NCBI GenBank assembly: GCA_964543815.1
Contig: CAZIZG010000004.1
Coordinates: 5,438-69,437, forward strand
Source: an uncultured Bdellovibrionales bacterium
GTDB taxonomy: Bacteria; Patescibacteriota; Minisyncoccia; Moranbacterales; UBA1568
Reading direction: 5' to 3'
DNA: 64,000 bases
The position numbers and the translations under genes are program-made. The notes beneath the pieces were generated by a model, which searched no databases, was not told the origin of the DNA, and was given only the letters and a program-made list of their open reading frames with translations. Below, one piece after another: positions 17,530-20,197 of this stretch (position 1 is the stretch's first letter; every line of letters begins with the position of its first letter).

Positions 17530-19278
17530 TCAGGAAAAGGTGAAGGCATACACCGCTACTCCAGGCGATACCAGGAGTTCAAGTGTATGTTCCCCAGAAG
17601 TTCCCTGTATCAATTCATAGAGGCGATCTTCATGAACCGTGACAACTCCCTCTCGCACATCAATACCAGAAATAGCTTTCTCAAGCGGTTTTCCATCCAT
17701 AACTATCTGAACCGTTCCAAGTCCAGTTGCTGGTGGTGCCATCACGAGAAAAACTTTTTTTCCCTGAAATCGAAGTTGTAATCGTGCCTTCTCTCCGGCG
17801 ATGGCTCGTTCTTGCTCCACTAACCACTCACCTCCAAAACCAAAAGTGTCGGACAGAAGCGCCTTTGGTAAGGTAAAGTGCTGTTTGGTACCTATCACCT
17901 GTTCGGATGAAGAAAAACGCTCCATACGTTTTGATCCGAGATATGTTTCCGGTGTTTGTGGTTCAGGGACCAGTCTATCCCCTGAGTGATTATCCGTCAC
18001 ATCCCCCTCTATTTCCTGCCCCGCCTCACCCAGGAGAAGTTGAATTGCTCGCTCCGTTTCCTCATACCCTCCTTCGCCAAAGTGATACTGCCGAACGTTC
18101 CCTGAAGCATCAATCAGATAGTGGGCTGGCCAGTATCGATTATGATAGGCCTGCCATGTTCCGTAGGAATTATCCTGAGCTACCGGATACGTAATCCCGT
18201 ATCGCACGAGGGCATCCGCCACATTGGCTGTTTTCTTCTCAAACTCAAACTCTGGAGTATGGACACCAATAATAACGAGTCCTTTGTCTTGATAGCGCTC
18301 ATACCATTGCGTAAGGTACGGCAGTGTCCGTACGCAATTGATACAGCTGTATGTCCAAAAATCAATGAGGACAACCTTGCCACGAAGTTCCCCAAGTGTG
18401 AGAGGTCGATCGATATTGAGCCAATTCATAATACCCGTAAACTCCGGGGCCATTCCATAGTTCTCTAGTACCGGCATTTGTTTTGATGGCACATCCGGCA
18501 CCTTAAACGGTGACTCTTGTGTCTCTTTCCGAAGGCTATCCAAGGCTTGAGTCACAATGCCATTTGTTTGAAAACGATCTAAAAACGTAATGCCATTTGC
18601 AGAACAAAACTCAGCAAAACGTACCTGAAGTTTCTGATCATAACCCGTATAAATAGCTAGAGCAGAAAATATCGTGAGAACCCCGAAAGCCTGTTGGATT
18701 CTTGTTGTATAGGGAGCAAAAATTCGTGTGCGTCGAAGCACCTGCTGACCAAGCACGGTCAAAATAAAGAGAGGTACCCCCACTCCCGAAACAAAAGCGA
18801 CCGTAACAAGAACCGTTGAGATACTCAGTGCTTGAGTCGCGGCCAACGTGGCTACTGTGGCCAGAATAGGTCCAGCACATGGCGACCAAATGATACCTAG
18901 AGCGAAGCCTGTTATTAACCCTCCCTTAAAGCCCGACTGCTTTCCTAGTATCTCGCCACCGAGATAAGAAAAGCGACTCACGAACGCCTCCAACATGATT
19001 CCTATCCCCGGTACTACCATGGTAACACCGAGTAAGCTTATGACAATAACCGCAAAGAGACGAAGCGTGTCTGGATCGATCGGGACAACACGAAGCAACG
19101 AAGAAAGCGCCAAGGTAAAAAAAGTAAAACTAGTAACAAGGCCCGCGACAATACCAATAGGCCGCCGCTCACCACCAGAAACCCCAACTGAAAGGATAAT
19201 AGGAAGAAGCGGCCAAATACAAGGAGCAAATATAGTTACGACACCAGATAAGAAAGCGAAGAGGATAAGTAGAATCAT
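17530..19278 (-). CDS. DipZ-like fusion: CcdA/DsbD-type transmembrane domain, plus a thioredoxin-like (redoxin) domain, plus a C-terminal beta domain
   Basis: N-terminal 240 aa is multi-TM with paired Cys (FAPCIWP, SPCAGP). Central FWTYSCINCVRTLPYL is a thioredoxin CxxC. Confidence 0.75.
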   Translation of the reverse strand: MILLILFAFLSGVVTIFAPCIWPLLPIILSVGVSGGERRPIGIVAGLVTSFTFFTLALSSLLRVVPIDPDTLRLFAVIVISLLGVTMVVPGIGIMLEAFVSRFSYLGGEILGKQSGFKGGLITGFALGIIWSPCAGPILATVATLAATQALSISTVLVTVAFVSGVGVPLFILTVLGQQVLRRTRIFAPYTTRIQQAFGVLTIFSALAIYTGYDQKLQVRFAEFCSANGITFLDRFQTNGIVTQALDSLRKETQESPFKVPDVPSKQMPVLENYGMAPEFTGIMNWLNIDRPLTLGELRGKVVLIDFWTYSCINCVRTLPYLTQWYERYQDKGLVIIGVHTPEFEFEKKTANVADALVRYGITYPVAQDNSYGTWQAYHNRYWPAHYLIDASGNVRQYHFGEGGYEETERAIQLLLGEAGQEIEGDVTDNHSGDRLVPEPQTPETYLGSKRMERFSSSEQVIGTKQHFTLPKALLSDTFGFGGEWLVEQERAIAGEKARLQLRFQGKKVFLVMAPPATGLGTVQIVMDGKPLEKAISGIDVREGVVTVHEDRLYELIQGTSGEHTLELLVSPGVAVYAFTFS

Positions 19279-19324
19279 AAAATGACGCTAAGGTTGTTAT
19301 CCTATTGTAACACGCCACATACCC

Positions 19325-19353
19325 TTGACTTTTCTCTTTTTTTGCGCTATAAT
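19325..19353 (+). promoter_or_regulatory. Near-perfect consensus sigma70 promoter (TTGACT-17-TATAAT)
   Basis: TTGACT at 19325-19330, a 17-nt spacer, TATAAT at 19348-19353. Confidence 0.5.
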
Positions 19354-19373
19354 GAATGTGTTGAGAAGTGAAA

Positions 19374-19410
19374 AACGGGTGAGGACGTCCACGTCTACAG
19401 CCCGTTTTTT
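19374..19410 (+). terminator. Attenuator-like hairpin plus T-run about 20 nt downstream of the consensus promoter
   Basis: acgggtgaggacgtccacgtctacagcccgt followed by TTTTTT. A second hairpin, gcccgccggagggacgggc, follows. Confidence 0.4.
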
Positions 19411-19490
19411 CTTTCTCAACCCCTCTTTTAACAAAGCCCGCCGGAGGGACGGGCAACATAAATACATACAGACGTATGGAGGAAGTAAAA

Positions 19491-19643
19491 ATGGAGACGC
19501 TTGAGTCTCAGGAGAGTGGTTGCACAACCTGTGCCCACACTGCCAAGGTAGCTCGAGAAAGCGAAGAAGTGGCTCTCGCCTTTCTGCTCGCTCTCATGCC
19601 GGTGATTACCCTCACCTTCTTCGGACAAGTCGGTCTCTTGTAA
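19491..19643 (+). CDS. Unannotated 50-aa CxxC membrane miniprotein
   Basis: Strong RBS GGAGGAAG 5 nt before ATG. Sequence METLESQESGCTTCAHTAKVARESEEVALAFLLALMPVITLTFFGQVGLL, with a C-terminal TM helix. A clean terminator follows. It is below the 60-aa cutoff of the ORF track. Confidence 0.45.
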   Translation: METLESQESGCTTCAHTAKVARESEEVALAFLLALMPVITLTFFGQVGLL

Positions 19644-19654
19644 GACCGAGTCCC

Positions 19655-19687
19655 CCGCCCCCAGCCTCCGGCTGGGGGTCTTTTTTA
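19655..19687 (+). terminator. Rho-independent terminator after the miniprotein gene
   Basis: cccccagcc-tccg-gctggggg followed by TTTTTT. Confidence 0.6.
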
Positions 19688-19708
19688 TCTTCCTAAAAAT
19701 AAAGGGGG

Positions 19709-20197
19709 CTATCTTTGTAAAATCTTTACTGCCAATCTTTTTTCAAGCAAATACAAATACAGCGTAAAAAGTATGAGTCCTTCCTTCAAAATCATCAGGG
19801 GAAACCATCGTTCAGTACCTACTGGATCAAGCACCGCCCAGCCCAATAGAACACAGAGGGTATACATTACTTCCCAGAACCACTGAGGTGAGTTCGCCCT
19901 TTCGAAGGTATAAGCAAAATTAAAAACAAGCAAGGCTCCGTAGGCAAGCAGGAGAAACCACCAAATTTCCTCCGGTATAAACACCTCGGCCTCTTGATAA
20001 GTAACAGCGGCTACCTCATCTATTCGTGGTCCATCAATCTCTGATATCCGAAGGGGTGTTAAGCGAGACAACGATATATCTGAAGAAAAAAAGAAAAGTG
20101 ACGCCCCTTCAATTAAAAGAAGACTCACTAGTAACAAAACGACACGAAAGCGTGTTAATAGGTGTCTACAGGTTTCCATAGGAGTAAGTATGTTCAA
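19709..20197 (-). CDS. Hypothetical membrane protein, co-operonic with the sortase
   Basis: 162 aa with several TM helices. Overlaps the sortase gene by 4 bp. Confidence 0.4.
   Translation of the reverse strand: MNILTPMETCRHLLTRFRVVLLLVSLLLIEGASLFFFSSDISLSRLTPLRISEIDGPRIDEVAAVTYQEAEVFIPEEIWWFLLLAYGALLVFNFAYTFERANSPQWFWEVMYTLCVLLGWAVLDPVGTERWFPLMILKEGLILFTLYLYLLEKRLAVKILQR

Follow-up and report, generated by a model that had tools for sequence, protein, structure and literature searches.

The DNA analysed here is a 64-kb stretch (the window) of contig CAZIZG010000004.1 from an uncultured bacterium, and coordinates without a locus name are window positions. It carries a gene for a 55-residue miniprotein with a predicted membrane helix, which is preceded by a near-consensus promoter and a long 5' leader hairpin and followed by an intrinsic terminator (table 1). 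On the opposite strand a gene for a DipZ-like protein diverges from it, as a preliminary description of the locus had stated, and the promoter and the terminator named there are likewise in place. Promoter, RNA structure and gene are conserved together in related genomes. The terminator-shaped hairpin, which is shared by three families of envelope genes, is probably a new regulatory RNA.

Table 1. Positions of the features discussed in the text. Positions without a locus name refer to the window.
Feature	Position	Strand	Remarks
DipZ-like gene	17530-19278	-	DsbD_TM + thioredoxin-like + Thioredoxin_10 (Pfam matches)
Probable extended -10 of the DipZ-like gene, TGTTACAAT	19304-19312	-	read from the sequence
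Sigma-70-type promoter, TTGACT-17-TATAAT	19325-19353	+	11/12 consensus matches
Leader hairpin 1	19360-19420	+	61 nt, -32 kcal/mol
CGGGUG core of the leader	19376-19381	+	GGGUG invariant
U-tract (T6 C TTT)	19405-19414	+	directly after the G-C core stem
CCCCUCUUUUAACAA, anti-Shine-Dalgarno-like and boxA-like	19421-19435	+	conserved in the window's clade only
Leader hairpin 2, GCCCG-CCGGAGGGA-CGGGC	19436-19454	+	-12.1 kcal/mol, pair probabilities ~1.0
A/C-rich translation initiation region	19455-19475	+	no Shine-Dalgarno sequence
Miniprotein gene, MEEVKMETLESQESGCTTCAHTAKVARESEEVALAFLLALMPVITLTFFGQVGLL	19476-19643	+	55 aa; alternative in-frame start 19492 gives 50 aa
Intrinsic terminator of the miniprotein gene	19657-19686	+	10-pair stem (19657-19679), 8 G-C pairs, loop of 3, then CTTTTTT (T6)
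Leaders of PGH-like genes	L011:6100-6260, L014:5930-6110	-	
Leaders of other PGH-like genes	L024, L029, L030, L034, L038, L039, L049, L060, L066 (~1 kb downstream of the miniprotein gene)		
Leaders of CAP-domain (PF00188) genes	L031:5437-5516, L062:4440-4600	-	

Promoter, leader hairpin and their conservation

Promoter sites with 11 of 12 consensus matches occur five times in the window, where 1.3 are expected, and the decisive evidence is therefore the conservation of the site and not the match itself. All homologous loci with sufficient upstream DNA, surveyed in 51 species-level genome loci and other contigs, have TTGAC-N17-TAyAmT 108-214 nt ahead of the ATG. In all 50 distinct leaders the promoter spacer is exactly 17 nt. 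Promoter and hairpin are kept even where synteny and the cysteines of the miniprotein are lost. As the promoter scan detected no second promoter on the + strand between hairpin 1 and the open reading frame (ORF), the mRNA must read through this hairpin. Over 19360-19700 as a whole, the folding z-score against shuffled sequence is -7.2.

Hairpin 1 begins about 6-7 nt past the -10 element, at the predicted transcription start. It consists of an outer stem (GUUGAGAAG/UUUCUCAAC), an A-rich/U-rich stem, a CGGG/CCCG core and a variable inner hairpin. The preliminary description had reported a hairpin with T6 at 19374-19410; both the inner stem (19374-19404) and the T6 behind it (19405-19410) are present, and both belong to the longer hairpin of 61 nt. 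Among the 50 distinct leaders the hairpin measures 50-79 nt, with a median folding free energy of -28 kcal/mol and an onset 5-8 nt after the -10 element. GGGTG is invariant in 46 of the 46 aligned leaders, and the inner hairpin is wholly replaced between clades while GGGUG stays the same; in one leader (L068) the pairing register of this motif is shifted. The CGGG/CCCG core directly before U6CUUU is the sequence arrangement of an intrinsic terminator. At least six U within nine nucleotides follow the core stem in 47 of 50 leaders, and the polarity of the arms is constant, the purine-rich arm being 5' and the U-rich arm 3' in all of them.

The selection of this structure is visible in its covariation. 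A covariance model (R1), which was built from the alignment of the clade and a hand-written structure, scores 85.7 bits at hairpin 1, its sole match in the window. It gives one strong match per locus, always on the + strand and at the leader position, with scores 30-40 bits higher than those of the - strand. Within the closest clade 95% of the cells are paired, four pairs have changed on both sides, and none of 500 shuffles scores as high as the real alignment. When the 46 distinct leaders are aligned to the model, 94% of the cells are paired, with compensatory changes at 15 of the 25 pairs. These leaders contain many G-U but few U-G pairs, which indicates that the + strand RNA is the selected structure. 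MAFFT followed by RNAalifold on all leaders gave 0 pairs, owing to the different lengths of the inner hairpins.

Four distant members of the miniprotein family (L068, L070, L078 and L079) retain the promoter, an ACGGGUG hairpin and the U-tract next to unrelated neighbours (ABC transporter and iPGM; UvrD and UbiA; infC-rpmI-rplT; recA), and some of these four lack cysteines. The leaders of L070 and L079 are minimal versions with a stem of 4-5 bp and a hexaloop. A fifth distant member has the promoter and a hairpin but not the GGGUG.

Searching Rfam 15 gave no + strand match on the leader at E up to 10, and at gathering scores there were only tRNAs in the window and no matches in 13 diverse related loci. 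The leftovers at E up to 10 are chance matches to the 3' terminator (anti-hemB, 27 bits against a cut-off of 49.5) and miRNA-like matches on the - strand. A pattern scan of metagenomes for the promoter with ACGGGTG and CCGTTTT was uninformative, giving four matches where about four are expected by chance, none of them before the miniprotein. One metagenome contig (L072:5258-5322, - strand) has TTGACT-17-TATAAT followed by ACGGGUG-UAAAG-CCCGUUUU before an unrelated gene; about four such arrangements are expected by chance.

Three other explanations for the hairpin were rejected. The mini-ORF of four codons inside it (GTG AAA AAC GGG TGA) was dismissed as a leader peptide, as neither frame nor stop is conserved in other clades. 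Against a DNA operator speak the varying spacing of the CGGG-CCCG half-sites and the G-U pairs, which would be mismatches on the other strand. A terminator serving the convergent - strand operon would not have the far lower score on that strand, where no conserved U-tract is found.

The leader is not confined to the miniprotein gene. In a pattern search over ~640 kb of related DNA, hairpins of the CGGGUG...CCCG-U-tract type form a second set, each directly behind its own promoter. The product of the second-set gene (PGH-like) has ~190-220 aa, with an N-terminal membrane anchor and a domain that contains VGIAKKESNWGK and four invariant Cys, and the only hint of its family is a weak Glucosaminidase match (E = 0.02). 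All 17 PGH-like genes with upstream DNA have the leader, and a U-tract follows all these hairpins. In L038 the C-G pair adjoining GGGUG is changed to U-A in the PGH-like leader. Several leaders of the second set were also weakly matched by R1. The third family comprises genes for secreted CAP/SCP-domain proteins, of which those in L031 and L062 carry the leader; that of L021 lies downstream of a glucosaminidase-like gene, and that of L059 has no CGGGUG leader. Within the ~640 kb the leader precedes only these three families of envelope genes, and its occurrence before exported or envelope proteins points to a regulatory role rather than to a stability element private to one gene. The window contains neither a PGH-like nor a CAP-domain gene, and no second copy of the motif.

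Downstream of hairpin 1 the preliminary description had placed a second, mutually exclusive hairpin. Such a hairpin does exist, but the two are not exclusive: both form, with pair probabilities of ~1.0, and the alternative fold (-21.6 against -46.4 kcal/mol) would cost 25 kcal/mol. The stem of hairpin 2 covaries within the clade (GCCYG/CRGGC, GUCUG/CAGAC and ACCUG/CAGGU, stems counted directly), RNAalifold on this region yielded no structure, and the hairpin is absent from clades other than that of the window. On the - strand, too, hairpin 2 conforms to the terminator pattern. The CCCCUCUUUUAACAA segment before it is complementary to GGAGGG in its loop, and pairing of the two could create a pseudoknot or a decoy Shine-Dalgarno sequence. 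The segment at 19421-19435 resembles the boxA of E. coli rrn operons (GCUCUUUAACAA), and CCCUCUUUAACAA(A) between the hairpins resembles the boxA of both rrn and lambda (GCUCUUUAACAA, CGCUCUUA). CCCUCUUUAACAA(A) is likewise found between the hairpins in L017-L024, L026, L030, L061 and L064, and the boxA-like segment occurs nowhere else in the loci searched. A small G-C hairpin follows this segment directly, which is a nut-site-like arrangement. Read on the - strand, the same segment is a weak U-tract after hairpin 2.

The miniprotein and its family

The miniprotein gene is real and under selection at the protein level. Among 44 distinct DNA versions of its last 21 codons, third positions vary in 21 of 21 codons and second positions in one, which identifies the + frame as coding and the two overlapping antisense ORFs (76 and 66 aa, both confirmed) as artefacts. 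The preliminary description had proposed an unannotated ORF of 50 aa with a strong ribosome-binding site. Its SGCTTCAH motif, the hydrophobic helix that follows it and the stop codon at 19641-19643 stand, but the only start that is conserved across homologues is the first ATG at 19476, many homologues having this upstream ATG alone, and the product therefore has 55 aa. The supposed ribosome-binding site, GGAGG at 19478-19482, falls in codons 1-3 of the longer frame and is not conserved. An A/C-rich stretch of the AAACAAACAUACA type without a Shine-Dalgarno match precedes the first ATG in nearly all loci. Nor is the gene unannotated: an identical product of 55 aa is on record, and its relatives are listed as 'hypothetical protein' in metagenome-assembled genomes (MAGs) of Candidatus Moranbacteria/Moraniibacteriota. 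Behind the stop codon a hairpin and a T-run are present in every homologous locus examined. A small hairpin (GGUCUCUUGUAAGACC, 19632-19647) encloses the stop codon itself, and a similar stop-spanning pairing is seen in L005, L007 and L008.

A word-indexed search detected 132 clusters (90% identity), and a profile search against 1.84 billion representatives yielded 79 (50% identity). These 79 are from Moraniibacteriota/Patescibacteria and, bar one upstream-extended call, 45-112 aa in length. An alignment of 42 sequences is invariant at C16, at C19, in the C-terminal AFLLALxP..TFFGQVGLL-stop and over the C-terminal 21 residues altogether, and it is this C-terminal helix that defines the family. 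The conservation of the CxxC motif, which the preliminary description had named as a point to be checked in relatives, holds for these 42 Moraniibacteriota-type sequences but not for all distant members: the motif is absent in P0145, P0152, P0181, P0191-P0193 and P0197, which belong to a group of distant sequences that keep the helix and in several cases have no cysteine at all. AlphaFold2 predicts a single continuous helix (residues 17-54, mean pLDDT, the predicted local distance difference test, 71) with the CxxC at its N-terminal cap. The gene has a stable position and is mostly single-copy. Two identical copies, each with its own leader, were observed in L062/L063 (same 30-kb contig) and in L055/L056 and L045/L047 (same MAGs).

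Searches of Pfam and NCBIfam with the miniprotein gave nothing beyond sub-threshold NapE matches; there is no PDB relative by sequence and no PADLOC match, and viral contigs contain no relatives. The small membrane proteins TorE and NapE (PF06796), which act as accessory 'crutches' for a membrane partner (PMC6134056), are the closest comparison. Like the miniprotein they have ~55 aa and one transmembrane helix in the C-terminal half after a conserved Glu, and NapE is weakly matched by 26 of the 42 members (best E 0.0019). Unlike them, the miniprotein scores 14.4 bits against a Pfam gathering cut-off of 25, has a CxxC, lies near no Nap/Tor or torC/napC-type genes and belongs to a family restricted to Patescibacteria. 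Like TorE/NapE, the miniprotein probably serves a membrane protein as a small accessory subunit. The family, with 79 clusters at 50% identity and no Pfam model, is a candidate for a conserved accessory subunit of a membrane complex.

A possible factor-dependent attenuator

What could such a leader do? The best reading, to which we assign a probability of about one half, is that it is a shared, factor-dependent 5' attenuator which also caps the 5' end of the mRNA. The near-consensus promoter would start the RNA of a one-gene transcription unit at ~19360, and its first 61 nt would fold into the conserved hairpin, whose inner CGGG/CCCG and U-tract have the form of an intrinsic terminator. As a promoter-proximal attenuator, it would by default end many transcripts at ~19405-19412, and the share of read-through would be set by a trans-acting factor, more likely a protein than a small molecule, that reads CGGGUG, the invariant element, as the 5' arm emerges and either blocks or promotes folding of the terminator. 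In the read-through RNA the outer stem would close, and the fully paired 5' end would shield the short mRNA. The outer stem covaries although it is located 3' of the U-tract, which means that the read-through transcript is also under selection. Translation would then begin at the ATG in an A/C-rich context without a Shine-Dalgarno sequence. The product would be one long helix with its C-terminal half (AFLLALMPVITLTFFGQVGLL) as the membrane anchor and the CxxC at the N-terminal helix cap, near the membrane surface. The leader would thus mark a small regulon of envelope proteins, composed of the miniprotein, the PGH-like proteins and some CAP-domain proteins.

A classical attenuator was tried as an explanation and rejected: hairpin 1 starts at the predicted +1, and hairpin 2 is downstream, coexists with it and is present in one clade only. 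With hairpin 1 at the predicted start there is no room for an upstream antiterminator, and considering that hairpin 2 is clade-specific, any control must act on hairpin 1 itself. The earlier suggestion of a regulated leader thus holds in so far as the leader is under strong selection, but not in the form of two exclusive hairpins.

Several points weigh against the attenuator. Hairpin 1 was missed by the simple terminator scan, as the stem is interrupted by an internal loop and the inner hairpin. The covariation alignment across all clades was fitted to the covariance model and so leans towards the structure, and the check for exclusivity of the leader covered no more than ~640 kb of related sequence. 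Transcription start and termination are both predicted from the sequence. No candidate regulator or ligand was identified, and no cognate regulator gene was found nearby. The set of conserved nucleotides is small and would also suit a generic stability element with a favoured G-C clamp. Finally, the link to the DipZ-like gene, discussed below, could be mere inherited synteny.

In one alternative the hairpin would do no more than stabilise the 5' end of a short mRNA with high expression; the U-tract would simply be complementary to the purine-rich sequence that is transcribed first, with little or no termination or regulation. 5'-terminal stem-loops are known to stabilise bacterial mRNAs, as in the leaders of ompA, ermC and aprE. 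In favour of such a role, the hairpin at the predicted +1 leaves no 5' overhang, the 5' end is fully paired, the mRNA is short, and the outer stem, downstream of the U-tract, covaries. However, those stem-loops require no U-tract and share no invariant sequence between unrelated genes. Stabilisation alone leaves unexplained the invariant GGGUG, the U-rich arm that is always 3', and the occurrence of both before three unrelated gene families and in clades with unrelated inner hairpins, and we regard it as rather unlikely. Alternatively, the strong promoter directly before a terminator-shaped hairpin could mean that the main product is the short terminated RNA, acting as a small RNA or protein sponge, and that the miniprotein arises only from leak-through. 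Such an RNA would be double-stranded almost throughout and lack a seed region, the placement of the element ahead of three different coding genes fits a role in cis, and the miniprotein is under strong purifying selection without a promoter of its own; this makes the short product very improbable. Least credible is a type I toxin-antitoxin module or a precursor gene of a bacteriocin or a ribosomally synthesised and post-translationally modified peptide, for which we see hardly any chance. A small hydrophobic peptide behind a structured 5' untranslated region would suit it, but a search of 58 loci gave no conserved - strand promoter within or behind the ORF (none at all in 48, and at no conserved position in the others), the stable position, mostly single copy and invariant helix across 79 clusters are untypical, and there are neither modification or export genes nearby nor PADLOC matches. 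The preliminary proposal of a peptide precursor is not sustained for similar reasons, no modification, protease or export genes being nearby and the invariant part being the C-terminal transmembrane helix.

The remaining alternative is a riboswitch for a small molecule or ion, with an aptamer embedded in the terminator, that switches on envelope genes. A model for it is the hydroxymethylpyrimidine pyrophosphate (HMP-PP, thiS motif) riboswitch, a terminator-embedded aptamer with unusually conserved nucleotides and a restricted gene set (PMC6478431). The arguments used for the thiS motif apply here as well, as the leader is a hairpin of the classic intrinsic-terminator form in which nucleotides seem to be conserved beyond the needs of termination and which, within the ~640 kb searched, precedes a restricted set of genes. 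It differs from HMP-PP riboswitches in that there is no similarity to their sequence or Rfam model, the conserved part is the top of the 5' arm (CGGGUG) and not the loop, neither an alternative P1 stem nor a pseudoknot is apparent, the hairpin stands at the predicted transcription start, and the sensor may be a protein. Only ~10 nucleotides are conserved, the minimal versions consist of just the short stem and the hexaloop, no alternative pairing or pseudoknot is conserved across clades, and no Rfam model matches; an aptamer of this kind is therefore unlikely. In protein-dependent attenuators, such as those of LicT/SacY with the ribonucleic antiterminator (RAT), PyrR and ANTAR proteins, a factor binds to the nascent 5' arm of the terminator. 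The leader resembles these in having a terminator with a short specific element overlapping the 5' arm before several genes of a regulon, and differs in the absence of their known recognition motifs and of a cognate regulator gene identified nearby. HMP-PP riboswitches and protein-dependent attenuators are the closest known systems to the leader, as TorE/NapE is to the protein, and the features compared do not support membership of the leader or the protein in any of them.

Returning to the factor-dependent attenuator, a more far-reaching proposal can be made tentatively, with somewhat less confidence than the attenuator itself: the CGGGUG hairpin-terminator may be a new class of cis-regulatory leaders specific to the Candidate Phyla Radiation (CPR), which senses a protein or ligand and switches on an envelope regulon, the tail-anchored miniprotein being its most widely conserved member. 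Gene regulation in Patescibacteria is almost unknown, owing to the largely uncultured state of these bacteria and their few recognisable regulators. With its deep conservation and three unrelated envelope genes, the leader would be among the first lineage-specific regulatory RNAs for Patescibacteria, and at ~60 nt with an invariant hexamer it is an element ready for testing.

Neighbouring genes and other features

The preliminary description suggested that the miniprotein could be a thiol-active partner of the adjacent DipZ-like protein. The neighbour count covers the 41 species loci whose upstream DNA extends for 2.5 kb or more. Of these, 17 contain a DsbD/CcdA-family gene no farther than 2.5 kb upstream, always on the divergent strand, and it occurs in four architectures (DipZ-like; CcdA alone; HMA-DsbD_2-cupredoxin; DipZ with thioredoxin and a membrane protein). 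A cyclophilin gene is nearby in 31 of the 41 loci, and peptidyl-prolyl isomerase, DsbD-family, sortase and other genes make up the neighbourhood. The invariant CxxC in Moraniibacteriota and the 17 loci speak for a partnership, but 24 of the 41 loci have no such gene, and it is also absent in the distant family loci, which keep the leader. Compared with CcdA/DsbD-thioredoxin systems (DipZ, ScsB-type), the likeness consists in a CxxC protein gene adjoining a DsbD_TM-thioredoxin fusion. The differences are that the miniprotein is a single predicted helix without a thioredoxin fold, that its cysteines are not family-wide, and that the DsbD neighbour is absent in most loci. The evidence for a thiol link is suggestive for the Cys-bearing Moraniibacteriota subfamily, in which neighbouring CcdA/DsbD-type thiol or metal proteins may be the partner. 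A fusion of HMA, DsbD_2 and Cupredoxin_1 (~455-465 aa) occupies the DipZ-like slot at L013:3477-4865 and L050:2949-4310, a hint that the link may involve a metal (copper) and not thiols alone. In the window the extended -10 of the DipZ-like gene probably stands back to back with the miniprotein promoter; it is missing from the output of the promoter scan because of its poor -35.

On the other side of the miniprotein gene, a multi-pass membrane protein of 162 aa is encoded at 19709-20197 (- strand), overlapping a sortase gene by 4 nt inside the operon of a giant SpaA-like surface protein. Pfam, NCBIfam and PADLOC offer no family for it, and its gene lacks an obvious terminator, so that its transcript may run antisense into the miniprotein gene. 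A relationship to the PGH-like proteins was considered and dismissed, as an alignment of 10 sequences has only 7 invariant columns and the residues of the 162-aa protein mostly fail to align with the conserved domain.

Many of the closest relatives (L017-L022, L029, L035 and others) are deposited as 'uncultured Bdellovibrionales' third-party annotation (TPA) MAGs; their gene content and named relatives are those of Moraniibacteriota, and the label is probably wrong. The segment 58960-59255 on the - strand holds a second TTGACT-17-TATAAT (11/12), followed by ~270 nt of untranslated RNA before small ORFs; this RNA has no Rfam match and is very stably folded (z = -7.4).

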